Part shown: positions 8,226-61,755 of the stretch, in pieces | Position numbering within the stretch: the first letter of the stretch is position 1 | Layout of the letters: each line of letters starts with the position of its first letter | Source of the DNA: Synechococcus sp. | Lineage (GTDB): Bacteria > Cyanobacteriota > Cyanobacteriia > PCC-6307 > Cyanobiaceae | NCBI GenBank assembly: GCA_047285535.1 | Contig: JBJBDC010000001.1 | Span: 1,664,136-1,728,135, forward strand | Direction: 5' to 3' | Length of the DNA: 64,000 nt | Program-made: the position numbers and the translations under genes | The notes under the pieces: model-generated | What the model saw: the letters and a program-made list of their open reading frames with translations, nothing else | What the model was told of the DNA's origin: nothing | Database searches by the model: none

Positions 8226-8549
8226 AACATCATTCTGACATCAAGCAATGCTCCTTGCCCATCCCCACACGCCAAGTACTCCAGGCCTGAGAGCAAGTTG
8301 GTAACGACTTAGCGAAAAAGCCGCAACAATCAAAACATCTGCGTCTCAGGCCCCAAGAGACGAGACCATCAAAAGCTTCGCATCAAAATCTGTCTGCACA
8401 GATCTTATTTCCGAGCCATATTCAACTCGCTATATGTAGCTTTTCGATCTCCACGAACGATCATCATTAGAGATCAAGCTGAAGGGTATCAGCAACCAGA
8501 CAAATGCTATTTCCCTACCTAGAATTTTCAAGCCATCAAAAAGTACTTT

Positions 8550-9017: not shown

Positions 9018-9031
9018 ACAAAAACACTTCA

Positions 9032-10186: not shown

Positions 10187-10196
10187 ATCGAAAGGA

Positions 10197-11020: not shown

Positions 11021-11064
11021 GGATAGGTACAACGCTTTTCTAGGGTAGAGATGTTCTCTAGAAG

Positions 11065-11487
11065 ATGAAACCAGCGACAGTGTCTCTGTCTCGATATCTC
11101 TTCCTAGAACACACCAATGATCCAGATGATCCGACCGGTCGGCATGTGGATTTGCTTCTGGAAGATGGCGAAAGCTGCCGCACCTGGCGGCTTGCAAGTG
11201 TGCCCCTTCCAAATGGCCCCAGCCTCAAAGCCACCCCACTACCAAGGCATCGATTGATTTGGCTTGAACGAAAATCAGCAGGTGTATCTGGAGGACGCGG
11301 CTGGGGGCGCCGCATTGTGAGCGGACGCTTCCATGGGGTCTTACCAGACAGCTCAGAAGAGCTGATCAGAATCCAACTCCTAGGCACTGGCGTCCTCGGA
11401 TTACCGGACCCTCTGACCCTCGAGTTAGTGAATGGCGAGTGCAGGCTTCACTCATCAGCTGATAACCATCCAGCGAAAAGGACTTGA
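11065..11487 (+). CDS. Hypothetical protein (LigD phosphoesterase N-terminal-like)
   Basis: LEH..HVDLLLE..TWRL..HRLIWL..VSGGRG pattern. Confidence 0.6.
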   Translation: MKPATVSLSRYLFLEHTNDPDDPTGRHVDLLLEDGESCRTWRLASVPLPNGPSLKATPLPRHRLIWLERKSAGVSGGRGWGRRIVSGRFHGVLPDSSEELIRIQLLGTGVLGLPDPLTLELVNGECRLHSSADNHPAKRT

Positions 11488-11537
11488 GCTTTTCAAAAGC
11501 TCCGCTAGTTTTGATTCGCTAACAGCAGTGTCCCCTG

Positions 11538-43283: not shown

Positions 43284-44708
43284 TTGAAGTCATCCCAGAA
43301 GCCCCTGTCTCTATGGGGCTATGTCGTCATCACCCTCCTCAGCATATTGGCTGGAGGGTGCAGCCAACCTGGTGCAGTTCTTGGTGATCCACCGGCAGAG
43401 CCGGCTTTACCGGCTGGGTTTGCAGTGGGCTTTAACCATCACTCAGGACATCGTTATCGCAGCCCGTTGAACGGTCAATGGAGAAATGGAGACGACCTTG
43501 AACAGATGCTGATCGAGGCCATCGAGTCCGCACAACAGGAAATTTTAGTGGCGGTTCAAGAACTCTCTCTGCCAGGCATCGCCCAGAGTCTTGTCGCGGC
43601 CTCCCAGCAAGGTGTGGAAGTCAAGGTGGTACTGGAAAATCACTACAGCAAGCCCTGGAGCCAACTCCACGACCTTGATCTGAACCGTCATGAACGCCAG
43701 CGACTCAAAAGCCTGAGAGCCCTGGCCGATCAAGATCAGAACGGTCTATTAAGCCCAGAGGAAGAACGGCAAAGCGATGCGTTGCTCATCCTTGAACAGG
43801 CCAATATCCCCTGGATTGATGACACCGAAGATGGCAGTCAAGGCAGCGGCCTGATGCATCACAAGTTTGTCGTGATCGACAGCAAGCGAGTGATCACCGG
43901 AAGCGCAAATTTCACCAGCTCAGGCCTGCATGGTGATGCTGGAGCAACACAAACCCGAGGAAATATCAACCATCTCCTCAGCATTCAAAGCTCAACGCTT
44001 GCGTCTTTATTCAGAGATGAATTTGCCCGGATGTGGGGAGATGGACCTGGAAGATCCAGCGACAGTCGCTTTGGACGAGGAAAAGACTCACAACCCCTGA
44101 AAACCATCAAGGTGGGCTCCGTCATCCTCCAAGTGCTTTTCCCCCCTCATTCCAAAACAACTCAAGGCCATGGTCTTGATATCATTGAAGATCAATTAAG
44201 CAGCGCGAACAAGACAATCGACCTGGCCTTATTTGTCTTTTCTGCGCAGCAACTCACGACCCAACTTGCAGAACGAATCGCAGCTGGAGTGAAGATACGC
44301 CTCCTTGCTGATCCTGGATTTGCCAGCCGCTCCTTTTCAGAAGTGCTTGATCTCCTTGGCGTCGCCCTGCCTGATCGCTTCTGCAAATTAGAGAAAGGCA
44401 ATCAACCATTAACCACTCCCATGAAGGGCATCGGCACCCCACGCCTCGCGCGCGGCGACAAGCTCCATCACAAGTTCGCCGTGATCGACAACAAAACCGT
44501 GATCACTGGATCCTTGAACTGGAGCCCGTCCGCTGCGCACACCAACGACGAAACCCTTTTAGTGATCCACTCACGCCAACTCGCCAAACATTTCACGCGT
44601 GAGATGGATCGGATGTGGCGGGGAGCGGAGCTGGGGATCACACCACGGATTCAGCGGAAACTCGACCACCAACGGATCCGCTGCGGCGCCGGGGTGGAGA
44701 GAATTTAA
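43284..44708 (+). CDS. Phospholipase D family protein (two HKD motifs; competence nuclease-like lipoprotein)
   Basis: HHKFVVID..GSAN and HHKFAVID..GSLN; lipobox AGGC. Confidence 0.88.
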   Translation: MKSSQKPLSLWGYVVITLLSILAGGCSQPGAVLGDPPAEPALPAGFAVGFNHHSGHRYRSPLNGQWRNGDDLEQMLIEAIESAQQEILVAVQELSLPGIAQSLVAASQQGVEVKVVLENHYSKPWSQLHDLDLNRHERQRLKSLRALADQDQNGLLSPEEERQSDALLILEQANIPWIDDTEDGSQGSGLMHHKFVVIDSKRVITGSANFTSSGLHGDAGATQTRGNINHLLSIQSSTLASLFRDEFARMWGDGPGRSSDSRFGRGKDSQPLKTIKVGSVILQVLFPPHSKTTQGHGLDIIEDQLSSANKTIDLALFVFSAQQLTTQLAERIAAGVKIRLLADPGFASRSFSEVLDLLGVALPDRFCKLEKGNQPLTTPMKGIGTPRLARGDKLHHKFAVIDNKTVITGSLNWSPSAAHTNDETLLVIHSRQLAKHFTREMDRMWRGAELGITPRIQRKLDHQRIRCGAGVERI

Positions 44709-45120: not shown

Positions 45121-46029
45121 TCAAACAATTCTCTCAAGAAGCTCCTTCGATTCTTCGAAAACCTTGAGCGCAGAATGTAGGCCTACATTGGTAGCATCAG
45201 TGAGTGTATCAATCATTTCGAAGGTGTCACTAACTGACTCAGCTGACGATGACACTTGATCAGCGATGTCGCTAAAAGAGCTTGCGAGCTCGTTTGCTGT
45301 CTCAATTAAATCAGAGATTTGCTCATCGTAACTTGAATTCATGGACTCTACTGCATTAGCAACGCTATCCTCCATCGCCCCCCCCAATTCCTCTAGACCA
45401 TCCTTTAAAAAGAGGCTAGTGTCTTCTGATTTAGAAGCAAACTCGGAAGACTGCTCAGCTATTAGTTCAATCTTACCGTCTTCAACGAGTTCCCCAAATA
45501 CAGAAGCTTCACCTTCAAGTTTGCTGGGAATATCAGACAACAAAGAGACAACCTTATCTGAAATTTCTCCAGTCAACTCGTTCGCACTCACGGTAGAATG
45601 ATCACTAAGATTGATATATCCTTCCAAGAGTGAAGCGTTGTTAGAGCTAATATCTTGCCATGATGACGCCTGATCAGATCTTATAGTTTGTATTAGTTCG
45701 CCGGATTCTTCAGCATGAGTTTTAGCTGCCTCAATTTGTTCAGCAAACGAGCTGCGAATATTCTCGAGTGTATCAAGAGTTTTTGAACAGTTTTCCCCGA
45801 AACCATCTAAGCGATTGGATATGTCATTTCCCAGCTCTTCAATTCTTTCTAAAGCAAGCCGGACAGAATCTTCAAGATCACTAAAACTAGAATTAAATCC
45901 CTCAAAGCTACCATCTGTGCTTTCTGAAATACTTTGGAGGTTGGCATCTAATTCGTCGATTTCCCTCAAGCAATCAGAAGACTTTTCGGCAAGCTCAATG
46001 GCAATAGTTTCAAATTCTGAATTTGACAT
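45121..46029 (-). CDS. Acidic all-helical (coiled-coil/apolipoprotein-like) protein D
   Basis: 302 aa, E/D/S-rich, regular hydrophobic periodicity, almost no Pro. Confidence 0.8.
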   Translation of the reverse strand: MSNSEFETIAIELAEKSSDCLREIDELDANLQSISESTDGSFEGFNSSFSDLEDSVRLALERIEELGNDISNRLDGFGENCSKTLDTLENIRSSFAEQIEAAKTHAEESGELIQTIRSDQASSWQDISSNNASLLEGYINLSDHSTVSANELTGEISDKVVSLLSDIPSKLEGEASVFGELVEDGKIELIAEQSSEFASKSEDTSLFLKDGLEELGGAMEDSVANAVESMNSSYDEQISDLIETANELASSFSDIADQVSSSAESVSDTFEMIDTLTDATNVGLHSALKVFEESKELLERIV

Positions 46030-46069
46030 GATAAAAATTGGACGAGAAGTTTAGACGATAGCCAAGAAG

Positions 46070-46981
46070 TTACTTAAACATACTTGGGAGGCTGTCATAA
46101 AGGCTAGTGACAGAATCAACAAGCGGCTCGAGCTCTCCAACGACCTCTTCTACAAGCCCGCGAATTACGTCAGATTCATCTTTTTTAGAGATCATGTCTG
46201 AACCAGCACGAGTTATCCCATCTGTAAGCGTATTTACGCATTCTTTGACAATCGAATCTATCTCCTCCGTGATTTTAGATTTGAAATCAGAAGAAATCTC
46301 TTCGAGTTTTTCCGACACTTTCTCGCTAGCAAGGTTGGTGAGAACATCAATAAATAACTCACTGCTACTTTCACCATCTGAATTAAAGAGGTCAAGAAAT
46401 GAGCTCACGTCATCAGCGACACCATTAATTGCATCGTCTAAAAGCTTATGAGATTGGTCAATCTGGCCTTGTGAAGCCTTAATCACTGCCTCAAAATGTC
46501 CGGATTGCTCATCCAAGTCAACCTTAACCTTTTGGAAGAGCTCGTTATAAGTATCAAAAGATTTTTGCAGATCAGAAGAGTGACTAACGGCAGAATCCCT
46601 ATTGTCAACAATTTCGCTCAACCGCTGTGTAAGGGATTCGTGCAATTGAGAGGCATCCTGCCTTATGGTATCAACTGAAACTTGGAGATCACTCGAGCTG
46701 CTTTCAATAAGACTATTAAGTTCATCAAAAGATGATTCTAATGAATCAATTAAATCCTTGGATTCATTAACTTTGGAGTCTATTTTAGACTCCATGTCCG
46801 CAGCCTTATCACGAAGAGAAGCAATAAGGGACTCAGCAAGATCCTTTTTGGCATCAATTTCATCTTGATATTCAGAAATCTTGTTTTGAATCGAGGCAAT
46901 AGTATTGGCTGATTCCTTAATCTGATTTGGAAGCTCTGAAGCAGCTTGGGTGATGGACTGAACTGATTGAGCGAGTGTCAT
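46070..46981 (-). CDS. Acidic all-helical protein C
   Basis: 303 aa, same composition as D. Confidence 0.8.
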   Translation of the reverse strand: MTLAQSVQSITQAASELPNQIKESANTIASIQNKISEYQDEIDAKKDLAESLIASLRDKAADMESKIDSKVNESKDLIDSLESSFDELNSLIESSSSDLQVSVDTIRQDASQLHESLTQRLSEIVDNRDSAVSHSSDLQKSFDTYNELFQKVKVDLDEQSGHFEAVIKASQGQIDQSHKLLDDAINGVADDVSSFLDLFNSDGESSSELFIDVLTNLASEKVSEKLEEISSDFKSKITEEIDSIVKECVNTLTDGITRAGSDMISKKDESDVIRGLVEEVVGELEPLVDSVTSLYDSLPSMFK

Positions 46982-47021
46982 GGGTCTATAGAATAATCAG
47001 GATCAATTGAAATTGGAGTAT

Positions 47022-48014
47022 TTAGCAGACAATATCAAGACCATCATTGATTGTTTCCAACACTTCTCCAACTGTTTTCATGGCAGGAAATATTGGTGCC
47101 ATGACTGCACTAACCGATGAGCCTGCTGCCATCGTGACCATCGTTGTTCCTAATTCTACTAATAGAGCGTCCAAAGTATTTTCCAACGCCTCTTGAAAGG
47201 AATCACGCAACTGCTGTTGGATATCATCGTTTAAGCCTGATACAGAATCACTAACAAATGTTGCAAAATTATCTATCATCTCTTCGCCAGCTGATGTACA
47301 AGACTCATCAAAATTGTTAAGCCCATCCTTAAGTTGAGTGGAAAGATTTAAAAGAGGTTCTTCAATCAGACTAGTTTGTTTGTCTGTTAAAGCAGCGATA
47401 GCCGTGTCATAAGCCGAGCCTGAAGAAGTTCTAAGTGAATCTAGAAAATCCTGGACAAACGCATCAAAATTTGATGATATTTTGTTCATCAGATTGATCA
47501 AATCATCGTTGGCTTCCGTGGCTGTTGAATGAATTACATTGACACCATCTGAGAGCAAAGAAATCGCTGACAAAGTATTTTCAATGGATACATTTGTCTC
47601 ATCTCGAAATTGCTCAATAATTGCAATGATTTCGTTAAACGAAGTGGTATATTCACTTTCTTGAGCACTTAACAAAGCCTGGGTATTAGATATTAAAGCT
47701 GTTGCATTGTCAAAATTATCGCTTAATTTAGACTTGCCAGCTTCAATCGACGTATCAAATCTCTCCATTGCTTGGTGAAAATTGCTGGATAGGGATTCAC
47801 TATCTGAATGAAATTTGGAGAGTGACTCGAGCAAGATATTATATTTGTCACGCAGGGCTTGATTTATGCCGTCCTGATTCGACTCTGTTTCATTCAGATC
47901 ATTTAAAGCACTTTCAAGCAAGTCATCAGAATTATCAAGTATAGCTCCAAGTTCATTCAGCTTTTGTGTAGAATCCTCAAGGTCTGATGCATATCCAGAA
48001 AGGTCAATAGTCAT
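47022..48014 (-). CDS. Acidic all-helical protein B with apolar C-terminal segment
   Basis: 330 aa; LGTTMVTMAAGSSVSAVMAPIFPAM near the C-terminus. Confidence 0.8.
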   Translation of the reverse strand: MTIDLSGYASDLEDSTQKLNELGAILDNSDDLLESALNDLNETESNQDGINQALRDKYNILLESLSKFHSDSESLSSNFHQAMERFDTSIEAGKSKLSDNFDNATALISNTQALLSAQESEYTTSFNEIIAIIEQFRDETNVSIENTLSAISLLSDGVNVIHSTATEANDDLINLMNKISSNFDAFVQDFLDSLRTSSGSAYDTAIAALTDKQTSLIEEPLLNLSTQLKDGLNNFDESCTSAGEEMIDNFATFVSDSVSGLNDDIQQQLRDSFQEALENTLDALLVELGTTMVTMAAGSSVSAVMAPIFPAMKTVGEVLETINDGLDIVC

Positions 48015-48052
48015 GATTTAGATCCTAAGTCCATTAAATTGTGAGTTAAAAA

Positions 48053-48928
48053 CTAGGCAATAAGTTCAATGACAGGCTTTATTTCATCGTAAATGTCTTG
48101 TACCTTTTCGGTAAATCCGAGAACTTCCTCAATCTTGGAAGTGTATTGCGCTATGTCATCAAGGCCAAGTTCTTTAAGTGTTTCAGTAGCTTCCTTCCAC
48201 GAAGAGCCACCTTCCGTGATTTGATTAACGATATCTAAGCCAATTATCGATTCAATAGTTGACAATTTTTCTTGATGAAGAGACTTAATACTATCAAGAA
48301 GGTCCTCGCTAAGCGATTTGGCTGCCTCCATCATTGAGGTAAGCTTTTGAGTTAACTCGTCTGTCCTCGTTGTCAAAAGGTTCTTAAGTCCCGATAGATT
48401 TTCGACCGATTCATCAAAACCAACCGTAGTTTTCTCAATTGTTGACACGATAGAAGTGTTAATGGTTTCTTTATCTTGATCCATTGTAGAAATAGTGTCA
48501 TTAAAACTACGCTCAAGCTCCTTGACGCGCTCAAGATAATCTGAGGAAGATGTAATAGCAATTTGAGATGCATTTTCAGTAGACTGGGAGCTAGTGGTCA
48601 TCACTTCGGAGTAAGCAGTTAGCTTAGAATTAATTCCTTCTTCGATAGATTCAATCTTTGCGGCAAAATCAGACAACCTTTCATCTAACTCAGTGATTTT
48701 GCTGTTTGTAGTAGCTCCTAGTGACTCTATTCGCTGCGCTAGTTGGTTGACTAATATTTGATTTTGGCTCATGCTTTCCTTTGCACTTTCTGTTGACTCA
48801 GTGATAATATCTAAAGCTGCATTCATGGTTATCTTATGCTCCTCAATTCCCTTAGAATAAGAGTCCATGCTATTATTAAGTTTCATCATCTTGTCCTGAG
48901 TTTGCTGGATCAATGCATCAAGGTCCAT
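48053..48928 (-). CDS. Acidic all-helical protein A
   Basis: 291 aa, S/T/E-rich helical periodicity. Confidence 0.8.
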   Translation of the reverse strand: MDLDALIQQTQDKMMKLNNSMDSYSKGIEEHKITMNAALDIITESTESAKESMSQNQILVNQLAQRIESLGATTNSKITELDERLSDFAAKIESIEEGINSKLTAYSEVMTTSSQSTENASQIAITSSSDYLERVKELERSFNDTISTMDQDKETINTSIVSTIEKTTVGFDESVENLSGLKNLLTTRTDELTQKLTSMMEAAKSLSEDLLDSIKSLHQEKLSTIESIIGLDIVNQITEGGSSWKEATETLKELGLDDIAQYTSKIEEVLGFTEKVQDIYDEIKPVIELIA

Positions 48929-49482
48929 AGCAAGAACAATTCATATTGAAACCATTAGCAACATCCACCAAGAAGGATGGCAGGCTTTATACTTCTTAAC
49001 CAAAGGCCAATTGCTCCTGTGGCCAATAAATATCAATCTAAGACACAAAAACCATTATCTTCATTAGCAGTGTCTCCTGAGGGCAGGAGTGCAATCACTA
49101 AGTATTGCTCAACGTTTAAAACTACAAAAAACAAATAAAGAGCCGCCAACTCGGAAGTTAAAGAATAAGCAACCGATTTGGGTTGAGATGGTTAAATTAG
49201 CCGATTTAATGCATGAAACCCAGTTGAGTTCAGTCTATTAATGATTTCGAGACTTGGCTTAGCTTGTTAACACCACCTCAGAACAAAAGTCGGATTCTCA
49301 CCCTTAAAGAACTATATGGATTGTTTTTTTCAGCAAGGACAAGCTGAAAATGGTTTGACGGCTGGTGTGTCGCTCTAAGGTACTTACTACCTAACATATC
49401 TGAAGAAAAGCTCAAAAAGCCGAGCTACCTAGCCTCAGTTATGCCTTTACAGGGTACCAATCATAATTAGTGCGAGTCGATA

Positions 49483-50304
49483 TCAATACAAAGGATTGGG
49501 ATCTCTGTGGTTGCGAACCGCGATCGCTAGTGACACATCATCACCACTACCTTCAGCAGAAATTTGTGCTAAACCAGTATGTATTTCGTTCATATCGTGA
49601 AGTTCCGCCACGCCAGCACAAAGCTGCAGGTAGTCGTCATCAGTGGCGCAGGATTTACGCACTCCATCTGTGCTGAGTATGAGTGCTTGTAGTGGATCGT
49701 AGGCATCTAGACGATGCAGCTGAGCTCGCCCTGACCAGCGATGTTGATCCATTGCACTGCAGAGACTTTCGGTCGCTTCACTAAGTTCCAGTTCAGATAT
49801 GGTTTCCTGGCTGAGAATGATAGATGCACCACTACGTTCAACCGCGGCAAGATCCCAATCGCCAACTCCCGTGGTTCCCCACCAACCCGGAGCAAGCAGC
49901 ACTAAGCCAATCGTGCATCCATACGTAAGAGACTTAAACGGTTGGTTCAACGGCGTGCGCTTTTGCCAGTCTGCTTCAATTACGTCTAGCCAAGATCTCT
50001 GTATAGCTTCAGGGAGATCAAGCTGAAGCAAACGTAGCCATCTCTCTACAGCAGTAAGAGGGGTCTGTTGCAAATGCTTAGCAACCACCTGCTGTGCAGT
50101 AGCACATGCCAATGCACTGCCTACATGGCTAAGCCAATAGCGGCTACCGCCGTGGCCGTCAGAAACAACCATCATTTGGAACTGGTCGACGCCAGCCTGG
50201 AGAGTGCAACAAAGTGAGGAATCTTGGCAGGGCTTACCCTGACGCTTGTGAGCAGAACCAATCACAGTGCATGCTCGAGTTTGTAACCATCCTGAACTCA
50301 CCAC
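49483..50304 (-). CDS. PP2C-like protein phosphatase (TerY-P type)
   Basis: VIGSAH..PCQD, VSDGHG, VGD, LSTDGV, GSGDDVS. Confidence 0.88.
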   Translation of the reverse strand: MVSSGWLQTRACTVIGSAHKRQGKPCQDSSLCCTLQAGVDQFQMMVVSDGHGGSRYWLSHVGSALACATAQQVVAKHLQQTPLTAVERWLRLLQLDLPEAIQRSWLDVIEADWQKRTPLNQPFKSLTYGCTIGLVLLAPGWWGTTGVGDWDLAAVERSGASIILSQETISELELSEATESLCSAMDQHRWSGRAQLHRLDAYDPLQALILSTDGVRKSCATDDDYLQLCAGVAELHDMNEIHTGLAQISAEGSGDDVSLAIAVRNHRDPNPLY

Positions 50305-51032
50305 ATTAAGGGGCCGACGTCATCGATCGATTTGTTGAGTTCTGGTGGCAGGTCTGGGAGCCGGATGTTGGCATCCGATTCTGGGCCGGCTGGCGACAAA
50401 CGTGTGGTTGGCATCGATGTAGCCCCCACCACACATGTCGAGGCCCACTGAAGGTATTGAGAGAGCGTAGTAGCGTTGCTCGCCTGCAACGGCCGGCGGC
50501 CTGAGCGCTCATCGCCAGCAGGTGCAGGTCCAATGAATTGCTGCAGCACTTCGAGGTCGGCATCGTGACCCATTGCGATCGCGAGGCGTACTGCTTTTTG
50601 AGCCCAAGGCAAGTGCATTAACTGAGAAAGTCCTGCTTCAAAGTCGTCGGTAGGTTGACCATCGGAAATCAAAACCAGCACCGGTGGTAAAGCCCGCTCA
50701 TCCATTGGCGGAGATTGCAAAACACTGGCTACCAGACCAAGGGCGGCGCCCATGGCCGTTGTACCACCCGCCTCAAGATCCTGCCATTGAAGATTCTGAA
50801 CCGGTGTGGCGTCTTCTAAATGCCAGGCTGCCTGATCTGCGAAACATACAACACGCACCAAAATTTTCGCTTCTGGGTTCTCATTTGCCACCTCAGACAT
50901 GGAAGGCAGTGATTGGCGGATTGCCTGATTCAATGCCTGCATTTTTCCCTGAGCCTCCATTGAACCGGAGCAGTCGCATATATAGATGAAATGTAATGGC
51001 CGACTGCTAAGGCGAACTTTAGGGAAAGGCAT
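50298..51032 (-). CDS. vWA domain protein (TerY-like)
   Basis: MIDAS DCSGSM, GGTTAMG, LISDGQPTD. Confidence 0.88.
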   Translation of the reverse strand: MPFPKVRLSSRPLHFIYICDCSGSMEAQGKMQALNQAIRQSLPSMSEVANENPEAKILVRVVCFADQAAWHLEDATPVQNLQWQDLEAGGTTAMGAALGLVASVLQSPPMDERALPPVLVLISDGQPTDDFEAGLSQLMHLPWAQKAVRLAIAMGHDADLEVLQQFIGPAPAGDERSGRRPLQASNATTLSQYLQWASTCVVGATSMPTTRLSPAGPESDANIRLPDLPPELNKSIDDVGPLMW

Positions 51033-51035
51033 GAT

Positions 51036-52361
51036 TTAAGGGCAAATTACCAAAACAGTTCCCATGTGACTATCAAGACGATGAGTAGAAGCGAGATTAG
51101 AGGTTTTTCCAGGCTCTAGTGAAATTTGTTGACCATTTATTAAGCTTACCTGCCAAGGATGGCGACTAAGATTTTTGAGGCCGAGCAAGCTGGGAACACT
51201 CGGATGTGGAACAATTACGGCAATAGGGTGATCAATAGTTTCTCCTGATAAGACATCAAAATGATGCGGATGCAATTCATTTCCAGCCGAAGCATAAACG
51301 ACTCCATGCGGCAACTTTAAAAGCGTTGGATTAGGCAATGATCCTCTACAACTCCAACAAATCATCTCTTCTTCAGCGTCACAGAAGACCTCCTGACCAC
51401 AGTGAGGGCACAATTGTCGTTGATCGAGGCACTGGGCTAAAGCCTGCTTCCACTGACCAGTTAATGAACGTTGTTCAGGTTGGCGCAGCCCAAGTGACAA
51501 GCTACGTTCAAACAACTTCTGAATAATGCGAGGATAAATAGGCCAGGTGATGAGAGCAGCAATATGTTCAATAGGATCAGGTCGATTGCTCGCATTAATG
51601 GGATCAAAGATAAAAAGTGCCTCTTCGGCATAAAGACACCGCCTGGCCGGTTCGTCTAAACAACGGATCTCTAGCTCGCGGGCACCACGAAAGGGATCAT
51701 GCCGTGTGAGCAAACGAAACAGAAGAACGGCTAACGAGAACAAATCACTACTGGCACCGGGAAGAGCTTTCCCCAAAAGAACCTCTGGCGCAATAAACCC
51801 GGGGGTACCTAAAATTGTGCCATGCCGCTGTCCATCAATATCAACATTGTCGTTGTCACAAATCAAAATCCGTCCGGTACTCGGCTCAAGAAATATATTT
51901 CCGAGAGAAATATCCTTGTAACAAAGTCCTTTCAGATGCAGCTGATGAAAAGCCTCTGCCAAGCGAAAGCAGGCCTTAAGGACATTCTGCAGACTGATTT
52001 CTAAATCACCAACAGCGTGCAAGTGGGATCCGACGAAGCTGGGAGGTCTCAACGGCATCAAATAACCAATTCCACAAAAATCATTATTCTGCGATTCCAA
52101 TGTTGCTAGTGGCCAAAGGAAATCAGCATTTGGTGAACCAAACCTAATGCTTTGGCGCAAGCGTGAATGCAATCCAGGGTCTCTAGCGATACAGCTGGGG
52201 AAATACCATTTCAAGGCAAGCAGTTGACCGCTGCTAGCCTTGTCTAATTCAACGACATAAACTTGACCTTGGCTTCCAGAACCTATTCCCTTTAATATAC
52301 GTAGTGGTGTGTCTAGACCCTTGAATTTTAAACATGGTCCTCGAGGCAACAACCAGGTCAT
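51036..52361 (-). CDS. Ser/Thr protein kinase (TerY-P type) with Zn ribbon
   Basis: IGSGSQGQVY, ALKWY, YKDISLGN, CDNDN, GTPGFIAPE, CPHC..CWSC. Confidence 0.9.
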   Translation of the reverse strand: MTWLLPRGPCLKFKGLDTPLRILKGIGSGSQGQVYVVELDKASSGQLLALKWYFPSCIARDPGLHSRLRQSIRFGSPNADFLWPLATLESQNNDFCGIGYLMPLRPPSFVGSHLHAVGDLEISLQNVLKACFRLAEAFHQLHLKGLCYKDISLGNIFLEPSTGRILICDNDNVDIDGQRHGTILGTPGFIAPEVLLGKALPGASSDLFSLAVLLFRLLTRHDPFRGARELEIRCLDEPARRCLYAEEALFIFDPINASNRPDPIEHIAALITWPIYPRIIQKLFERSLSLGLRQPEQRSLTGQWKQALAQCLDQRQLCPHCGQEVFCDAEEEMICWSCRGSLPNPTLLKLPHGVVYASAGNELHPHHFDVLSGETIDHPIAVIVPHPSVPSLLGLKNLSRHPWQVSLINGQQISLEPGKTSNLASTHRLDSHMGTVLVICP

Positions 52362-53072
52362 TGCATACTGTCCTCCTGAATCTCACCAATGAAAGAGTAT
52401 AAGCCAGCAATCATATAGGGATTAAGTTGAGGAAAGCCCGCCATGGGGAGCGGATAACCCTTGAGAAACAATTCATAAGTGATGGATGCAAACTTTATTT
52501 AACTAAAACTGCAAAGCCTGTCAGGCCAAGCAGAGACGGAGACAACAACAGCATGAAAGCTGGCAGAACGGCAATTAAGTGAAAACGCTCTAAGATGAAA
52601 AAATCATGAAGAGCCGTAAAAACGGAGCCACACAACCAATCAAAATCCGAAATTACCAACAGACTAATAATTTTTAGGCTGAATTGAAGTTAAAGCATAA
52701 GGGTGTATGCGATAAGTCACTCAAGGAGAAGGGGTGATAAACGAAAAAATGGGATGTATAATTACACAGTTGATCGATCAATAATTACTGCGCCAATTTG
52801 CAAGAGAGGGCAGACCTCGCTGGAACATAAGATACAATCAAACTGCTTTAAAGATAACATCATCCCAGCAACACCAAAAGCACAAACACTTGCAACAAAG
52901 AAGACCATTCAAAGCCCTAAGAATTGCATGGACGTACGATAAGATGTCTAAAAATATAAGTGCACATGGTGACCAAAATGAGCAACAAAAGTGAGCCTAT
53001 AGACGAGACAAGCAATGGCCTATGAATGATACCAGACAACCATAGATAGACTTACGATACTAGACGATTAAG

Positions 53073-53846
53073 CTATAAACTGCACAACGAATCAAGGAAG
53101 TTCTTGTCACCTTCATCGCATAAATTTCCGCCATGTGATTGTTCAGGCTTTTCAGCATCTCCAGAATCAGTTGAGTTCCCTCTAGAGGGATCATCAGACA
53201 AACTACTATTCTTAATACATTCATCGTATGCAGTATTATTTATAATTCCCAGCGCTCTGCACCTGAAAGAAGGATAATAATTCCAAGCGAAAATAGTTAC
53301 AGACAATGCAACCCCAGATCCCAATATCAGGATTCTCTTGTTAATACGAGCCAAAGCTTTGTTTATTATTCTGGGTAATGATTGACTGTTTCGCTGATTA
53401 ATAGATATTTCGCCCGTAGTATCAGCGAGGATTTGAGAAGGACCCTCAATCTTATAGCTAGAATGATCGGCTGTATCAATTGAATCAACACTGTCTTGGC
53501 TCTTTTTGTCAGAGGATCGCGAATCCTCACTTATCTCCAAGTACCCGTTTAATACTTGACTGATCTGATTGACTATATCATCTCTATAGTATGTTTGAAA
53601 TTCTTCTAAAAGGCTGTCCCTCAATAAAGTCGAATGAGATTGACCATTTTTAAAATCATATTCAAGCAATCGCTGGTTCCCAAAAAGATCCCTTAACGGA
53701 GCCAAAAGCCTCTCGTTATCACCTATATAATCGGCCAATGCTGACTGCATAACAGATCTAATATCAATTCGTGAGCCTATTGTCAAACGAAAAGACTTGA
53801 GTCGTGCCCCAATATCTGCAAGGGATAAGTCAGACTTCGAAGACAC
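53073..53846 (-). CDS. Hypothetical single-pass membrane protein
   Basis: Helical N-terminal domain, linker, TM ILILGSGVALSVTIFAWNY, Cys-containing tail. Confidence 0.7.
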   Translation of the reverse strand: MSSKSDLSLADIGARLKSFRLTIGSRIDIRSVMQSALADYIGDNERLLAPLRDLFGNQRLLEYDFKNGQSHSTLLRDSLLEEFQTYYRDDIVNQISQVLNGYLEISEDSRSSDKKSQDSVDSIDTADHSSYKIEGPSQILADTTGEISINQRNSQSLPRIINKALARINKRILILGSGVALSVTIFAWNYYPSFRCRALGIINNTAYDECIKNSSLSDDPSRGNSTDSGDAEKPEQSHGGNLCDEGDKNFLDSLCSL

Positions 53847-54720
53847 TGAAATCTATATTTTTACGAACACTAATTGTATTTCGTTTGCTTGTCAACCGCA
53901 TACACAAAAAATCATGAGGCATGTCTTAAAATTCAATCCCTTTCCATAAGGCAACATTGACTTGTCAGTTTATCCAACGATCTCTATCACAATCGCAGGG
54001 GTAATCATATTTTATACGTTGATCAGCCCAGCCCTGAATATTTAATTACAAAACGAACATATACAAGTCCATCAATAAGACTAGAGCGCCGCGAAGGAAT
54101 GAGAACATTGTGGACATAGTTACAAAATGCCGTTATTTATAAAAAGCGCTTGAAACGTAAGGGTTAATGGCAATACTGAGAAATTTTCAAAATTTCAACT
54201 GATGCAAGCAAATACTCAACTGGATAGAGACAAGCATAGAAATAAAAGCTGCAACTCATCCAACAATCACTTGTGAAGCCATTGATCAATGGGCGATATA
54301 AATCACTATTAACAATAGAAAAAGCGTCTCATAAAAACAAGACTATAGGACAGCACTAAGCACACGACAGCAATCATTGGTCATATTAGTTGCTCAATAT
54401 GGATAAATATCACTGGGTTTAACCAATATTTTCTATTTAATCGATAGGCCCAATAGAGTTAAACCTTTAAAGCGCCTGGAGCTTAAGCTAAAGCCTGATC
54501 AGAAAACTACAATAGTTTTCTTGAGCCAATATATTCTTACACAAAGGAATTTCCCTTGAAGACAAGGTGTTGCAAAAACTTTTTATCATAGTTAATATTT
54601 ATCGTCAATCTCAGTTTTCTCAAAGTCAGAGTTTCATTATTACCAGCACCATGAACCAAAGAAAAGCGGAAAACAAGTTAAACCCATTAATGAAGATAAA
54701 ATTGTGATAATTGACTATAA

Positions 54721-56271
54721 TTGGCAGAGACCTTCAGGGGGATAGCAGTGGAAGGCAATTTCTTTGCTGAATTAACAAAGTCAAACGGTAGACTTCTGAA
54801 GAAACTTAACAATAGCGCCGAGCAAGTCTCAATTGGAACCAGCATTGATTGCGATATCATTATTGATAAAAATATCTATCCAACAGTTTCCAGGGTGCAA
54901 TCGTTTATTAGAATCATTAAAGAAAGTGAGACAATTACAGCTTATATTTTCGATGCAGATTCACGAAATGGGACATATGTGAACGATTTGCGAGTAACAA
55001 ACAAACAGGAGCTGAAAGATGGAGATAAAATCAGTCTTAGCAAACATATCCATGCATGCGAACTTAATTTTAACTACCTCAACACTGAAGATCAGATTCT
55101 GAAGCCTCTGGAAAACTACTACCCAGACAGTAATAAGAAAGACGCTAGAGGATCATCTCCTGTGAAGCTTAAAGAAACAACTCAGAAGGAAAGTACTAAA
55201 AGTAATACAAGTCGGCTTCAAAAGAATGCTCCAATCAATCTCAATTCAATGCTAGCAGAGACTAATAAAATGAAAAACAATCACGAAAAACTAGTAAAAT
55301 CAGATAAAATTGAAAACACAGAAGTTGATGAAAAACAAATAATTTCACAGGGCAATGCGCTTATAATGGACATAAGCAACGAAACAGTACAAAGCAATCC
55401 AAAGCAGACGAATATCAGTATCAGAAAGACATCTCAAGACTCAATAGACATAAATAATACTATTCATAACTCCCAAAAACCGTTAGAATTTGATAGTGAT
55501 CGAGACGATAATGATAGTTTGTTTGTTATTTCAGAAGGTCTAATCGACGCAAAGTCAATAGCTGTCGACTCCCAGGCTTCTCAGATTGCATACTGCTCAG
55601 ACAATGGATATTTAAATTTGCAAAAATTTGGACAATCAGAACCTTTTGCTCATACGGATTTGGGTCAAGCTTCTACGGCAATACGATTTTCAAAGATTGG
55701 AGAATTAATTGCAATCGCAATGCAAAATAAAGATATAGCTATCTGGGATATCAGTCTAAGAAACAAAATAAGTGTGCTACAGGGTCATAAATTACGTATC
55801 ACGGATATTTCATTTAGCCCTAATTCAAACAACTTGGTAAGCTGTAGCTTGGATAAGACAATTCGCTGTTGGGATATACGCTCTGGAAAAGAGCAGAAAG
55901 TAATACGTACTAAGGGTCTTGGGGCTACAGCTATTGACTATATTCAAAATGGTACAAAAATAATTTCTGGAGGAAAAGATCGAGTCCTTAGGTTATGGGA
56001 TTATAATAGTATGGAGGAAGCGCGTCAATTAAGCGCTAACAAGATAAATGCCGGAATCGAGAAGATTTGTTGCTTAGATCAAAGGAATGAGATTCTTGTT
56101 GCAACGGCAGATCATATTATTCACAAACAATCACTTAAGGCCATTGGCATAGACTTGAGCAGTGTGAATTATCCAAGACAAAAATCGATACTTTCAATAT
56201 GCAATAGTGGTAAGCTCTTAAGTCTACTTGATGCAACTGGCCGGCTACAAGGATGGAATATTAATTGTTGA
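54721..56271 (+). CDS. FHA domain plus WD40 repeat protein
   Basis: FHA-like VSIGT..VSRVQ..DSRNGTYVN; WD40 GHKLRITDISFSP..SLDKTIRCWD and SGGKDRVLRLWD. Confidence 0.85.
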   Translation: MAETFRGIAVEGNFFAELTKSNGRLLKKLNNSAEQVSIGTSIDCDIIIDKNIYPTVSRVQSFIRIIKESETITAYIFDADSRNGTYVNDLRVTNKQELKDGDKISLSKHIHACELNFNYLNTEDQILKPLENYYPDSNKKDARGSSPVKLKETTQKESTKSNTSRLQKNAPINLNSMLAETNKMKNNHEKLVKSDKIENTEVDEKQIISQGNALIMDISNETVQSNPKQTNISIRKTSQDSIDINNTIHNSQKPLEFDSDRDDNDSLFVISEGLIDAKSIAVDSQASQIAYCSDNGYLNLQKFGQSEPFAHTDLGQASTAIRFSKIGELIAIAMQNKDIAIWDISLRNKISVLQGHKLRITDISFSPNSNNLVSCSLDKTIRCWDIRSGKEQKVIRTKGLGATAIDYIQNGTKIISGGKDRVLRLWDYNSMEEARQLSANKINAGIEKICCLDQRNEILVATADHIIHKQSLKAIGIDLSSVNYPRQKSILSICNSGKLLSLLDATGRLQGWNINC

Positions 56272-58408
56272 TATTAGACTTATGGATGTCTTCCATGATC
56301 TGAGTCAGTGCATCTAACTGACGACTCATTTTTTTTATATCTATCCTGGTTAGTTTATGATCAGAATCTGCCGAAAGTAAACCATCTGAGCCTATATCTA
56401 CAGTGCTCTTTTGGTGTGAGGAGATATTTGAGGATGTTGCCAATCGACCTTTGAAAAGTTCCTTATGTTGAACAATCTCAGCCAGCAGATATGATCGAAT
56501 CTCATCAATACGAATTTTCATATATGTGATATAATAATTTCTAACTTCTTTCTTGAGTTTTCCTAGAGACTCTTCGCATTTTTGGTCAAGCTCTGAATTA
56601 TAAGTAAAAAACATTAGGATAAGAATTAAGGGTAAAATTATAGGAAGCGCTTCTTTTTTTACATTGTCAAAGTTAAACAAACCCGCAATTATTGAAATAA
56701 TTCCAACTGAGGCTAGGACCTGGCTTCTTAATTGTTTCCAGATATAGCCCGGAAAGTTCGGGAAGAGGATGTAAGTAGAAGTAACGGGAGGAGCCACATC
56801 TGTTTGCAAGATCTTACTAAGATCAAAAGAAAGATTAGGAGTTGTTGACTGTTTTTCATCATTAGCAATGTAAACATTTTTTTCGGTGCTTTGAAACGCT
56901 TCGGAATAAAGACCCTTAAGGCTGTCACTATCATTCTCTTTACCAAGCAAAACTGCATCTAGAGTTGAAGTACACCAATTCATAAGATGACCATGGCACC
57001 AATCAAGCATATGGTTATGAAGATATTCAGTATCCGGTTCATTCTTATGCTGTGCTAAATAAATAATCAATTTATTTCCATTGCGCTTCCTAATTTGTGT
57101 CAATCCTGAAAGTTCGCGATCTACGGATCTCCTCAATGCATTTGGGGAATATTCATCAAGAAATGTCTCTTTCCCTTCCTCTAATGAACTCTTAAGCGTT
57201 TCAATAAAATTATCATAACGAGACACAAAATCAGAACCAAAAGAATTAGCTGCCCCTTGGACTTTGGTCAGTTTAGGATCGTCAGAATTAGTATTCATAC
57301 TCCTCTCATTCTCTAAGTGAGCATCTAAAGTCTCCTCATACAACTTGTGTAGGCTAGAAGTAATCCAGTAAATAGAGCGGGAAATGGAGTTCAACCAATC
57401 TTGGTCATTGCTAGACCCTCTAATTACATTGATACACTCATCGTATTCAGGCTGAGCCGCTGGAACCAGCATTGTCGTCCCATCAGAAGGAACAAAGGGT
57501 GACAAGTAAAGAGGGAAGAAAGAAATCATCGGACTAAGTTCAGCAATATAAGAGCTGAGCTCCGAAACATGATCATTACCAGCAGTCAATATAGAACAAT
57601 TAACAACTACTATAAAGTTAGAAGCTGAACATGAAGACAATAGATATTCAATTAGCTTTAGCACAGATTCGTGATCACTATCTGACAATAAAAGCAAAGC
57701 TGTTGTCACAGCTATGGAATAATGGGAAACATCAGGGCACTCTATATACTTTGTGTTTCTATTATTAATAACATTAAGACTGGCAGAGCCATTCATAGGA
57801 GCATGAGCTCCTAAAGTTATTTCATCATTGGCTGTGAATTGTATCCATTGATTTTGCTGACACTTTTTATTGTTGACAAAAGTCCCATTAAGGCTCCCCA
57901 GATCTCGCAAAAATGTATCATTCTGGGAATTAATTTTAACTTCCGCATGAATTCCGCTTATTAGCGTCAAGTATTTGTCTACAGCCAACGAGCACTTTTG
58001 CTTATTTCTACCAATGGTTTGAACAGAACCTGGAACCAAATCAAGCCTTTTTGACTCATAAACCCCTTCCGAGTTCACAAATTTAATATACATTTCTACT
58101 GAATTATCAATCCTTAGGTGACTTAACCTGTCGTCATCAATCTTGATGTCGAACTCATTGATTTGATTCGACGCAAGCAAGTCCTTTAACAAAGCATATT
58201 CATCTTCTGATTGTGCGCGCAACAACAGAGACCGGGATCGTTCTGTGAGGCAATTTTTGCACAAAGACAAATCGTCAATGGTTAAATCGAGAAATTGCTT
58301 TATTGGCGAATCGTTGACTATTTTCTCTAATTTGACAAGCAACCTTTCGAGTCTACGTGTGACCTTGGCAGTGTCATCCATGTCGCGATTATTCTCCAGG
58401 ACATTCAT
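56261..58408 (-). CDS. FHA domain membrane protein with dynamin-like layout, no visible P-loop
   Basis: FHA TIGR..ISGIH..DLGSLNGTFVN, then an alpha/beta segment, a long helical region, a hydrophobic hairpin and a C-terminal helix. Confidence 0.75.
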   Translation of the reverse strand: MNVLENNRDMDDTAKVTRRLERLLVKLEKIVNDSPIKQFLDLTIDDLSLCKNCLTERSRSLLLRAQSEDEYALLKDLLASNQINEFDIKIDDDRLSHLRIDNSVEMYIKFVNSEGVYESKRLDLVPGSVQTIGRNKQKCSLAVDKYLTLISGIHAEVKINSQNDTFLRDLGSLNGTFVNNKKCQQNQWIQFTANDEITLGAHAPMNGSASLNVINNRNTKYIECPDVSHYSIAVTTALLLLSDSDHESVLKLIEYLLSSCSASNFIVVVNCSILTAGNDHVSELSSYIAELSPMISFFPLYLSPFVPSDGTTMLVPAAQPEYDECINVIRGSSNDQDWLNSISRSIYWITSSLHKLYEETLDAHLENERSMNTNSDDPKLTKVQGAANSFGSDFVSRYDNFIETLKSSLEEGKETFLDEYSPNALRRSVDRELSGLTQIRKRNGNKLIIYLAQHKNEPDTEYLHNHMLDWCHGHLMNWCTSTLDAVLLGKENDSDSLKGLYSEAFQSTEKNVYIANDEKQSTTPNLSFDLSKILQTDVAPPVTSTYILFPNFPGYIWKQLRSQVLASVGIISIIAGLFNFDNVKKEALPIILPLILILMFFTYNSELDQKCEESLGKLKKEVRNYYITYMKIRIDEIRSYLLAEIVQHKELFKGRLATSSNISSHQKSTVDIGSDGLLSADSDHKLTRIDIKKMSRQLDALTQIMEDIHKSNINN

Positions 58409-59434: not shown

Positions 59435-60280
59435 TTACTTCCCAGGCATTTTTTGTTTTTTTAGGTAAAAATAGCTTTTGCCGTATAAATAGCATTTGGT
59501 GGTAGAGGCCTTTTCTAAATCACCTCTAATGTCAATCGGTGCGATTTCTTTGATGCCACAATGGGCACTTGCGTAATCACCAATCTCTAATGCATGCTCA
59601 ATGTGTTCTGGTTTTATTTTGCGCGATGGATTGCTCATATCCCAAAAGCCCTCGCTGCTAACCACTTCTATGCCGTCAATTACCGTGCTACAGATTCCAT
59701 CCGAAATGCAATGTAGTTTTACATTATTTACCCTGCCAGTGACCTTTAATTCAAAAATAAATTCAGGCTCTGTTTTGGCATTGACTTCATGTTCTAAGCC
59801 AGAGCGCGTAAACCAAAATTTTCTTTCGGTTGGAGCATAAATGTTGTCATCAATTTTTTTAAGTCTTAGCTTGTATGTATTGCCAGAAATTGGGAATGCT
59901 GACCTAGTGCCTCCGGGTGGCGCAAATTCCCTACCCCATGAACAATAAGTTTTAGATAACCCATAGTTTTTCATCAGTGGGTTGCTGCGCCCACGGCCCG
60001 AGCAATAATAATCCATGGGATTATATGATGGCAATATAGTTATTATCCGATTATCATTAGGCATGGGAAGCTCAACGACTAATTGAGTGTATGTTTTGCT
60101 GCCATCAATATATTGAGTCAACTGCAATATTTTGGCATTGGAAATTAGGTCGGATTTTTCTTCTATTCTTTGTATTGCTTCCTTCTCGACTATTTCTTGC
60201 AGCCATGGCGCAATAGCGGAATATGAACTAACGGGAGTCAAAAAGACCGCGACTAGCGAAGTAATTATTTTGCCCTTCAC
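59435..60280 (-). CDS. Hypothetical exported protein
   Basis: 281 aa with signal peptide MKGKIITSLVAVFLTPVSSYSA; several Cys. Confidence 0.7.
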   Translation of the reverse strand: MKGKIITSLVAVFLTPVSSYSAIAPWLQEIVEKEAIQRIEEKSDLISNAKILQLTQYIDGSKTYTQLVVELPMPNDNRIITILPSYNPMDYYCSGRGRSNPLMKNYGLSKTYCSWGREFAPPGGTRSAFPISGNTYKLRLKKIDDNIYAPTERKFWFTRSGLEHEVNAKTEPEFIFELKVTGRVNNVKLHCISDGICSTVIDGIEVVSSEGFWDMSNPSRKIKPEHIEHALEIGDYASAHCGIKEIAPIDIRGDLEKASTTKCYLYGKSYFYLKKQKMPGK

Positions 60281-60699: not shown

Positions 60700-61755
60700 C
60701 AAAGTCATCTATTTTGCAAGAACGTTTGGCATACTTCAGCAGCTAATGATCAACGCTAAGTCCTGCTACTGATGCAAGGTCTGCAGAAGTATTTCCCATA
60801 GCAAGAGCGTGTGAGAGGAACGAATGCCTTTGGGAATACAAACTCTGACAGGTATCCCCAACCGTCTCTGAGAGCGTTTCCATACTTGCTCAAGCCGCTG
60901 TCATCCAAATGCCCATAAGACCTTGGGGTTACGAACACAAGACCACTCTTGGTACAGAGACCAAGTGCCTCACTCGTGGAGCGATGCTCTCTCAGCATCT
61001 CCACCACCTGGGGGGTGATCGGAACCACTCTGTTCTTCCCAGTCTTGGTGGATGCCCAAATCCTCTTGTGGGTAGCAGTCCCTTCTCTCTTCAACGTCTT
61101 ACTGATCCAAAGTTCAGCGTCATCCAACCGAACGGCATCCCTCGTCAAACCAATCAGTGCTGAATTCCGCAGTCCTGTACTCATCCACAGCAAGAAGGAG
61201 GGGTAGAACCATTCCTCATGGGTCTTGAGGTGTGCCAGAACCTGTTGAATCTCTTCCTTAATGAGAACCTCCTGATGAACACTTCTCGTTGGCACCTTGA
61301 TCACCGCTGATAGCAACGCCTTGTTCTTCGGTTGAATCCTGCGAATAATGCTGAGGATCATGGACTGGGTAGACGGCCAGCCCCCTCTTATCCATCCACT
61401 CCACAAACCTCCGAACTTCCAGTGTTGTCTTAAGGGGACTTCCAAACCTCAAGACAGGCCGATAGGCATGGATCACACGTCCTTGCTTGGTCTGCTCCAT
61501 CAACTGCTTGAGTGCCTCGATCAAATCCAAATCCTGACCATCCACCAGTGGTCGGTTACGGTTCAAACTCAGATCCAGGTCACCCTGCTGGTCATCACTC
61601 CAGATCTCAGCAGTGATCGCCTCTGCTCTTGCAATCGCAACCGCAACCGGGTAGAGCCAACGACCCAACCTGTAGATCCTCCGTTCTTCCCCATCGATCC
61701 GCACTCGAACCACGATGCTGCCATTGTTTGTCCGCAGCGAAGGTCGTTTCCTCAT
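60700..61755 (-). pseudogene. Frameshifted tyrosine recombinase/integrase
   Basis: Arm-binding-like N-terminus (61258-61755 frame); TGLRNS and KTGKNR (60756-61445 frame); YSQRHSF..LLKYAK in a further frame. Confidence 0.85.

Follow-up and report, generated by a model that had tools for sequence, protein, structure and literature searches.

Gene content of the locus

The window is a stretch of 64,000 nucleotides from Synechococcus sp. (assembly GCA_047285535.1, contig JBJBDC010000001.1, positions 1,664,136 to 1,728,135 of the forward strand), and the locus in question occupies positions 45121 to 58408 of it. The locus contains genes for a Ser/Thr kinase, a vWA protein, and a PP2C phosphatase, which together form a triad; for four helical proteins, h1 to h4, which form a quartet; for a 257-residue protein; and for two proteins with FHA domains, one of them with WD40 repeats and the other, of 715 amino acids (aa), with a dynamin-like fold. 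Judged by comparison with related genomes, the locus is a composite, in which a conserved cyanobacterial module, short of the kinase usual for it, adjoins a host-type triad of the TerY-P kind without its usual small FHA partner. The open reading frame (ORF) list and translations confirm the ten genes proposed in an initial annotation, which was made from the sequence alone, and all ten reading frames are intact. The genes are the following.

45121-46029, minus strand: h4, putative fourth helical paralogue, 302 aa, isoelectric point (pI) 4.05 (ORF; positional orthologues)
46070-46981, minus strand: h3, putative third helical paralogue, 303 aa (ORF; family profile)
47022-48014, minus strand: h2, putative second helical paralogue, 330 aa (ORF; alignment A5)
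48053-48928, minus strand: h1, putative first helical paralogue, 291 aa (ORF; alignment A7)
49483-50304, minus strand: PP2C phosphatase, 273 aa (PF13672, 6.5e-23)
50298-51032, minus strand: TerY-like vWA protein, 244 aa (PF00092, 2.8e-7; DxSxS metal-ion-dependent adhesion site (MIDAS) motif)
51036-52361, minus strand: Ser/Thr kinase, 441 aa, zinc ribbon (Cys4) and beta-rich tail at the C-terminus (PF00069, 6e-16)
53073-53846, minus strand: protein of 257 aa with a single predicted membrane segment (hydropathy 1.63 at residue 172)
54721-56271, plus strand: FHA-WD40 protein, 516 aa (Pfam: FHA 2.4e-12, WD40 3e-18)
56261-58408, minus strand: FHA dynamin-like membrane protein, 715 aa (Pfam: FHA 7.3e-14)

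The quartet and the triad are all encoded on the minus strand, and the assignments of the kinase, vWA protein, and phosphatase are confirmed by Pfam. The vWA protein also matches PF13519 (4.1e-6), and its MIDAS motif reads DCSGS. The match of the phosphatase is above the 24-bit cut-off, and the DGHGG and DG/DD metal motifs are present in its translation. None of h1 to h4 has a Pfam family above cut-off, and their description as four unexplained helical proteins holds.

The cyanobacterial module and its proteins

A profile of the h3 family was searched against 401 genomes of the class, with matches at E ≤ 1e-17 regarded as strong. The profile matches 33 genomes at E ≤ 1e-5 and 21 at E ≤ 1e-17, the window genome (G000) included, in nine families. 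It has no match in the 39 other genomes of the window's family, and the h3 protein itself has none in 36 genomes of the genus. A distant h3 match in genome G048 pointed to four helical genes in a colinear array, next to a kinase and a 553-aa relative of the 715-aa protein; the colinear orthologues of h1 to h4 and of the 715-aa protein have E-values of 1.8e-9, 8.6e-13, 8.6e-9, 3.7e-5, and 1.9e-7.

Module loci were collected from 20 other genomes, 21 in total, and their ORFs of at least 90 aa were called and compared with the proteins of the window. The Pfam scan covered 108 non-helical ORFs, most of them about 200 aa long or longer, and the four helical genes of locus L004, and omitted smaller ORFs and the other helical ones. 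Neighbouring genes were judged in the 19 loci of at least 12 kb, and two loci on contigs of 3.0 and 5.8 kb were left out of this judgement. In all 19, the helical array, which consists of four genes or, in some loci, six, has as its neighbours a homologue of the 715-aa protein and one or more Pkinase genes. The usual kinase of the module is a kinase-WD40 fusion of 707-792 aa. Loci L041 and L043 contain a kinase-PPC protein instead, together with a separate FHA-WD40 gene that is convergent on the gene of the FHA membrane protein, as in the window. Orthologues of the FHA-WD40 protein occupy the same convergent position in L041 (5e-43), L043 (5e-42), L059 (4e-48), and L060 (4e-46).

The reverse search, in which a profile of the 715-aa family was run against the 401 genomes and full-length matches were counted, detected the dynamin-like homologue in 24 genomes. 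Twenty of these are h3-positive, one match is on a truncated contig, and three genomes lack the helical genes. Genome G117, which is 61% complete, is h3-positive and has no dynamin-like match. The initial annotation had proposed that the quartet and both FHA proteins belong together, and they recur as a colinear orthologous set in 20 other cyanobacterial genomes. By these sequence criteria, the quartet, the 715-aa FHA protein, and the FHA-WD40 protein are one conserved cyanobacterial module. The writer-reader logic proposed for the locus is upheld in part: because the module is linked to a kinase in every other locus with enough flank (19/19), the logic of writer and reader is real, and the vWA and PP2C components fall away, being absent from all 20 other module loci (0/20).

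The surroundings of the module vary. Loci L035, L038, L040, L044, L049, and L050 have six helical genes rather than four. In the same six loci, the helical array is separated from the kinase-WD40 gene by genes for a Wza-like protein (Poly_export and SLBB domains) and a protein of the size of Wzc (about 700-725 aa), the latter confirmed by Pfam (AAA_31/CbiA) only in L035, L038, and L040. Genes for surface proteins with SLH domains adjoin L046 and L047, and CHAT, caspase, or DUF1822 genes adjoin the module in L004, L036, L037, L038, and L043. In L046 (G155, positions 7753-12752), two kinases are located between the quartet and the FHA dynamin-like gene, one fused to HSP70 and the other to DO-GTPase2, which connects the module with components of conflict systems already published. 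Loci L055 (G093), L056 (G430), and L057 (G229) encode FHA dynamin-like relatives of 702-706 aa without helical genes; their neighbours are kinases, one of which carries DnaJ_C, and unassigned proteins of 402-484 aa. These three loci may represent a sister system.

The hydrophobic residues of h1 to h4 recur with a period of 3.55-3.75 residues, far above shuffled sequences, which is the pattern of amphipathic helices. Ser and Thr make up 20-23% of the residues, and the content of Cys and Trp is low. Every orthologue of h1 to h4 has a pI of 4.05-4.38, with 20-25% Asp and Glu and 3-6% Lys and Arg; taken over the helical proteins as a whole, Lys and Arg make up 3-9%. The h3 family aligns with h1 over the full length (hhalign E 2.8e-17), with h2 (1.5e-15), and with h4 (1e-17), and by this profile comparison the four proteins are ancient, distant paralogues. 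The idea that the helical proteins are detached dynamin stalks was dropped: in a control, hhalign of the h3 family with the dynamin-like family gave a probability of 0.2%. The order h1-h2-h3-h4 is constant in the loci examined, and its persistence across nine families is an argument for an obligate structure of several subunits. The h4 orthologues were identified by position (298 aa, 1.8e-9 in G048; 5e-20 in L042). The C-terminal tail of h2 is conserved, hydrophobic, and contains Pro, with the highest 19-residue hydropathy, 1.42, at residue 291.

Relatives of the helical proteins are few. Among 1.84 billion representative sequences, h3 has eight matches at E ≤ 1e-3, and the closest, P0001, is 42% identical and is encoded on a 6.5-kb contig. 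The label "MlaD" that one source gives to P0001 looks spurious, because h1 to h4 of the window contain no MCE domain. Alignment A8 matched a single 1.9-kb contig (L072) in metagenomes and nothing in genome contigs. A protein homologue search with alignment A3, in which low-complexity candidates had probably overwhelmed the word index, gave no match at 1e-10. Complex prediction with the h2 and h4 alignments and h3 as partner gave scores of 0.30 and 0.29 against a mark of 0.32, which speak neither for nor against a complex. The four families are without annotation and have so far been seen only in cyanobacteria.

The AlphaFold2 (AF2) model of h3, the only helical protein modelled, is all-helical with a mean pLDDT, the predicted local distance difference test score, of 54.5. 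Foldseek with this model retrieved nothing at E ≤ 1e-3, and the matches of the h3 profile to the PDB are only of the apolipoprotein, designed-bundle, and haemagglutinin type. About 17 of the best 50 rows of the VIA search with the model are BAR, I-BAR, or F-BAR domains (181-210 residues aligned, Z 9.4-12.2); these Z values lie within the helical-bundle background, and the pLDDT of the model is low. The BAR-type matches of the h3 model are a lead rather than a result.

The AF2 model of the 715-aa protein was calculated from an alignment of 18 sequences and has a mean pLDDT of 70.4. It has a small alpha/beta head with a strand (residues 59-65), a helix (68-79), and a second strand (88-92), after which the FHA domain (104-215) is inserted. 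Past the FHA domain, three strand-helix units (236-329) are followed by long helices, a hydrophobic membrane hairpin at about 552-610, and a C-terminal helix of about 100 residues. Fold searches uphold the dynamin-like layout assigned to this protein in the initial annotation. The best Foldseek matches are the bacterial dynamin-like protein (BDLP) structures 2j68 and 2j69 (E 1.9e-7 and 3.5e-7, about 800 columns), followed by chains of the Campylobacter dynamin-like protein (DLP) at about 1e-5. VIA aligned the model with the mitofusin Fzo1 (9kfd; Z 14.4, root mean square deviation 5.8, 266 aligned), with Campylobacter DLP (5oxf; Z 12.7, 431 aligned), and with a solved FHA domain (Z 16.0). A protein homologue search with residues 220-715 returned only the protein itself.

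The dynamin GTPase motifs G1 and G4, as listed in PMC5827413, were sought as regular expressions in the 18 members of the alignment. G1 (GxxxxGK[ST]) is missing from 17, and its sole match, in L037, is located in an N-terminal helix and not in the loop after the first strand. G4 (N/TKxD) is likewise missing from 17, and the sole TKRD, at residue 447 of the L048 protein, is outside the head. The FHA pocket residues G133, R134, S151, H154, N174, G175, and T176 are nearly invariant (alignment A4). Because the GTPase motifs are absent from the aligned positions and the FHA residues are almost unchanged, the 715-aa protein can be read, on its predicted structure, as a dynamin-like membrane protein whose GTPase is dead and whose reader of phosphothreonine (pThr) works.

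The triad and the history of the island

The residues K51, D150, N155, D169, E193, C318, C321, C335, and C338 of the triad kinase are invariant in 9/9 homologues (alignment A9). Because the catalytic residues and the Cys4 ribbon of the kinase are conserved in this way, the triad fits the definition of TerY-P (PMC11090510). All nine homologues share a PHH motif and one resembling GLKNLS in the kinase tail behind the zinc ribbon (residues about 345-441), which may be a degenerate FHA-like domain or another beta domain.

The kinase has 12 close homologues (E ≤ 1e-78) among the 401 genomes, six of them from the window's own family and 57-69% identical. Homologues of the vWA protein and phosphatase accompany the kinase in 11/11 other fetched loci, and the order kinase-vWA-PP2C is kept in six picocyanobacterial loci. 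The phosphatase and vWA protein are 63% and 73% identical to the products of L061, and the kinase is 69% identical to its counterpart in G018. Helical or dynamin-like genes are found in 0/11 of these loci, and the sequence that the window shares with the triad locus of its congener G018 is limited to positions 49507-52362. The initial annotation had joined triad and quartet in one system and had named their independent occurrence as the finding that would speak against this. Independent occurrence is what is observed: the quartet is present in none of the 11 other triad loci, and vWA and PP2C genes are present in none of the 20 other module loci. The twelfth kinase homologue, 41% identical (3.2e-98), belongs to L042 (G264), where it lies beside an FHA-less dynamin-like gene and the quartet, without vWA or PP2C genes.

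FHA proteins recur around the triad. In the sister loci L061 and L062 (G018 and G222), the gene immediately ahead of the kinase encodes an FHA protein of 233-234 aa, and FHA proteins confirmed by Pfam occur near the triad in L061, L062, L064, L068, and L070. They include an FHA protein and an FHA-PrsW protease in L068 and a 674-aa protein in L070, and an FHA-FHA-ABC transporter is encoded near the triad in G124. By its neighbourhoods, the triad appears as a separate, portable cassette that works with FHA partners. In L061 (5992-9259) and L062 (10639-13911), the triad and its small FHA gene stand with a divergent gene for a class A penicillin-binding protein that carries FHA at its N-terminus, which suggests phospho-control of wall synthesis. 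The gene after the triad in G018 and G222 encodes a distant relative of the 257-aa protein of the window (phmmer; 391 aa, 8e-12 in L061; 321 aa, 7e-5 in L062). The 257-aa protein has a single hydrophobic segment near residue 172, consistent with its annotation as membrane-anchored, and no match in Pfam, PADLOC, or NCBIfam.

The guanine-cytosine (GC) content is 0.35-0.41 at 45.0-49.0 kb and 52.5-58.5 kb and 0.53-0.54 across the triad, in agreement with the AT-rich setting and GC-richer triad described initially. The module genes are AT-rich, and the GC content of the triad matches that of the left flank (0.51-0.57) and of its picocyanobacterial relatives. The gap between triad and quartet, given initially as about 550 bp, measures 554 bp. 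The remaining features of the locus and of its right side are the following.

48929-49482, minus strand: spacer of 554 bp between the PP2C gene and h1, at the GC step (GC profile)
49426-49409, minus strand: terminator-like hairpin in the spacer, after the PP2C gene (consensus match)
49270-49241, minus strand: promoter-like site in the spacer (consensus match)
59435-60280, minus strand: unassigned ORF of 281 aa with a hydrophobic, signal-like N-terminus, between the module and the integrase remnant
60756-61755, minus strand: putative tyrosine integrase remnant in two overlapping frames, 60756-61445 and 61258-61755 (PF00589, 1.3e-8; phrog_1, 1.2e-19)

The promoter-like and terminator-like sites are no more than consensus matches, and their counts do not exceed those in shuffled sequences. 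The 281-aa ORF has no family in Pfam, NCBIfam, PADLOC, or PHROGs, and Rfam and tRNA scans of 38-64 kb gave nothing. The tyrosine integrase is probably a frameshifted remnant, because it is split over two overlapping frames.

The left flank, formed by a DUF4912 gene and a PLD-family gene (43284-44708), is present in 39/40 congeners. The AT-rich insert follows immediately on this core PLD-family gene, and to the right of the insert stands the broken integrase. The final ~200 bp of the PLD gene recur downstream in the congeners G016, G018, G006, G035, and G002, and in G016 a stretch matching the integrase of the window (60724-61611) is located just before the copy of the PLD 3' end. Because of these copies and the integrase stretch beside one of them, the site looks like an integrase-served island hotspot at the end of the PLD gene. 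The window contains no second copy of the PLD 3' end, and the right end of the insert is therefore not fixed by an att repeat.

The triad occupies the kinase slot just upstream of h1, as the kinases of L041 and L043 do. Searches with tblastn detected no other kinase or kinase remnant at 44.7-60.5 kb and no remnant of the small FHA gene in the intergenic stretches, including 48929-49482. The most economical history has a module of foreign origin and a triad typical of the family coming together in one island, with the small FHA gene lost. Independent accretion with a GC step, the fallback of the initial annotation, is correct as history.

Proposed switch and alternative explanations

Functional coupling of the triad and the module through pThr and FHA domains is plausible. 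The reading we favour, with a probability of about 0.5, is a phospho-gated system in which a pThr-FHA switch driven by the triad controls a pseudo-dynamin scaffold and the four helical proteins at the membrane. A signal sensed by the vWA protein or by the zinc-ribbon and beta tail of the kinase would activate the kinase, and the resulting pThr marks, on the kinase itself or on module proteins, would be bound by the two FHA domains. Binding would dock or unlock the pseudo-dynamin scaffold at the cytoplasmic membrane, so that the pThr-FHA switch would take the place of the GTP switch of dynamins. The scaffold would organize a hetero-assembly of the four helical proteins, and the phosphatase would reset the system. 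The most likely output is remodelling or protection of the membrane or envelope under stress or phage attack. Three features speak for the membrane or envelope: the hairpin of the pseudo-dynamin, the envelope-related FHA proteins beside sister triads, and the Wza- and Wzc-like genes of six module loci. An accessory and possibly defensive role is indicated by the patchy occurrence, the location in an island, and the five loci with CHAT, caspase, or DUF1822 neighbours.

Coupling is favoured by what each part lacks in the window, the module having no other kinase and the triad no small FHA gene of the type found in L061 and L062, and by L042 as a precedent for the same kinase clade beside a quartet. 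Several observations weigh against a triad-gated system. Triad and module occur together only in this genome among those searched. The GC content steps from 0.38 to 0.53 and back, and together with the terminator-like hairpin after the PP2C gene these steps indicate that triad and quartet may be separate transcripts of separate origin. The extreme acidity of h1 to h4 makes their direct binding to anionic membranes unlikely. The alignments of the four helical families contain no conserved Thr or Ser, so the proteins are not obvious FHA ligands or substrates, and the h3 model is of low confidence.

Triad and module may be mere neighbours, independent pieces of cargo, with the triad serving FHA targets elsewhere and the module orphaned or served by a distant kinase. 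Such an arrangement, which we regard as possible and somewhat unlikely, would fit the 11/11 other loci that have the triad without the module and the 20/20 that have the module without vWA and PP2C genes. It would also fit the GC step, the hairpin and 554-bp gap between triad and quartet, the restriction of the sequence shared with G018 to 49507-52362, and an integration hotspot where unrelated cargo accumulates. However, the ten reading frames are all intact, an orphaned module would depart from the kinase linkage of the 19/19 other loci with enough flank, and the triad kinase lies directly upstream of h1, in the position seen in L041 and L043. The absence of the small FHA gene of L061 and L062 beside two FHA genes of the module, and the kinase of the same clade beside the quartet of L042, also argue against independence.

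It is also conceivable, at a lower probability that makes it doubtful, that the module serves envelope biogenesis rather than conflict, regulating or scaffolding the export or assembly of surface polymers or peptidoglycan under Ser/Thr phospho-control in the manner of FHA-regulated envelope enzymes. The Wza-like and Wzc-sized genes within six module loci, the SLH-domain proteins beside L046 and L047, and the FHA-class A penicillin-binding protein, FHA-ABC transporter, and FHA-PrsW protease beside sister triads are in line with this function. Its patchy occurrence (21/401 genomes, 0/39 others of the window's family) and, in the window, its position in an AT-rich, integrase-associated insert without export genes are not, and the CHAT, caspase, or DUF1822 neighbours in L004, L036, L037, L038, and L043 are more typical of accessory conflict islands. 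Very improbable is a quartet of secreted or pore-forming effectors, of the type of multi-component alpha-helical toxins or small secretion substrates, with the FHA membrane protein as part of an export gate. Four distant paralogues in one operon, the conserved hydrophobic tail of h2, the low Cys and Trp content, and weak matches of the h3 profile to ESAT-6-type helical hairpins (E ~1e-4) would suit such effectors, but these matches are in the range of coiled-coil noise, beside apolipoproteins, designed bundles, and haemagglutinin. Neither signal peptides nor a secretion ATPase are present in any of the loci, and the best 50 rows of each fold search include no pore-forming toxin; two components of toxin complexes (Tc) appear in Foldseek at E 0.1-0.3, far above the threshold of 1e-3.

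If the phospho-gated system is correct, the 715-aa family, a conserved branch of the dynamin fold without GTPase chemistry, with an inserted phospho-peptide reader and always adjacent to a kinase, would represent a different gating of a dynamin-fold machine. The locus represents a natural module swap, in which a portable TerY-P cassette stands in place of the module's own kinase in a marine picocyanobacterium. The long-standing question of what TerY-P triads signal to becomes directly testable, because the two FHA proteins are explicit candidate readers. A protective output would bear on the phage-host dynamics of ocean cyanobacteria.

Comparison with known systems

The signalling layer of the locus is of a known kind, and the effector set is not. 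The combination was initially judged not to be a described one, and this stands: full-text searches of the literature, supplementary tables apart, yielded no FHA-bearing dynamin-like protein or gene set of this composition. The set was not found in the passages of PMC7159879, PMC11090510, PMC5827413, and bioRxiv 10.64898/2026.10.19.760177 that were searched; the supplementary neighbourhood tables of PMC7159879 and PMC11090510 were outside this search and might list such loci. PADLOC-DB v2 gave only matches at the coiled-coil level (ZorA, JetC, LeoBC; best 3.9e-6) and generic kinase matches to the window proteins, with no system model. The NCBIfam matches are limited to generic kinase, FHA, and coiled-coil families, and PHROGs, apart from the integrase match, gave only tape-measure-like coiled-coil noise.

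The TerY-P triad, as defined in PMC11090510, consists of a TerY-like vWA protein, a PP2C phosphatase, and a Ser/Thr kinase with a C-terminal zinc ribbon. The triad stands beside DO-GTPase systems in PMC7159879, and the two sources attach it to quite different systems. The window has all three domains, adjacent and co-oriented, with the invariant Cys4 ribbon, the beta-rich tail, and the behaviour of a portable cassette. Its clade differs in the order kinase-vWA-PP2C and in travelling with FHA-domain proteins. There is an experimentally tested defence version of TerY-P, and PADLOC contains TerY-P models; in PADLOC, the vWA protein and phosphatase of the window have no match, and the kinase matches only generic kinase models.

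The Deinococcus radiodurans operon DRA0331-0334, which according to the abstract of bioRxiv 10.64898/2026.01.23.701218 is concerned with DNA-damage signalling, joins four domain types (vWA, kinase, FHA, and PP2C), as does the picocyanobacterial cassette, where a small FHA gene stands with the kinase, vWA, and PP2C genes. The DNA-damage context of the operon, which is not known to include a dynamin-like or helical partner, sets it apart from the locus described here.

In the current understanding, bacterial dynamin-like proteins remodel membranes and are driven by GTP. The predicted 715-aa structure shares the alpha/beta head, helical bundles, membrane hairpin, and C-terminal helix with BDLP (2j68/2j69), Campylobacter DLP1/2 (5oxf), and mitofusin Fzo1 (9kfd). 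In contrast to these, it lacks G1 and G4 at the aligned positions in the 18 members, and it has an FHA domain inserted in its head. The protein is missing from a P-loop-based census of cyanobacterial DLPs (PMC5827413), in which passage searches for "FHA" gave no match. The partners of the 715-aa protein are helical proteins and kinases instead of a second dynamin.

In eukaryotes, BAR-domain proteins work with dynamins, and the BAR domain is a crescent-shaped dimer of three-helix bundles with a basic membrane-binding face. The h3 model resembles BAR folds at background-level Z, and the h3 gene lies near a dynamin-like gene; however, the helical proteins are strongly acidic (pI 4.05-4.4) and not basic. 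A bacterial counterpart of the dynamin-BAR pair, in which a kinase-gated membrane-remodelling machine mobile among cyanobacteria would combine a scaffold of dynamin/mitofusin fold and a pThr/FHA switch with four BAR-like crescent proteins, is a speculative and distinctly improbable extension of the phospho-gated system.

The control of type VI secretion by Thr phosphorylation depends on the kinase PpkA, which has a vWA domain, the PP2C phosphatase PppA, and the reader Fha1. The logic proposed for the window is the same, in that a kinase with vWA, a PP2C eraser, and an FHA reader would gate a membrane-associated machine. The difference is that the window, which has no type VI genes, has its FHA domains built into the candidate effector proteins themselves.

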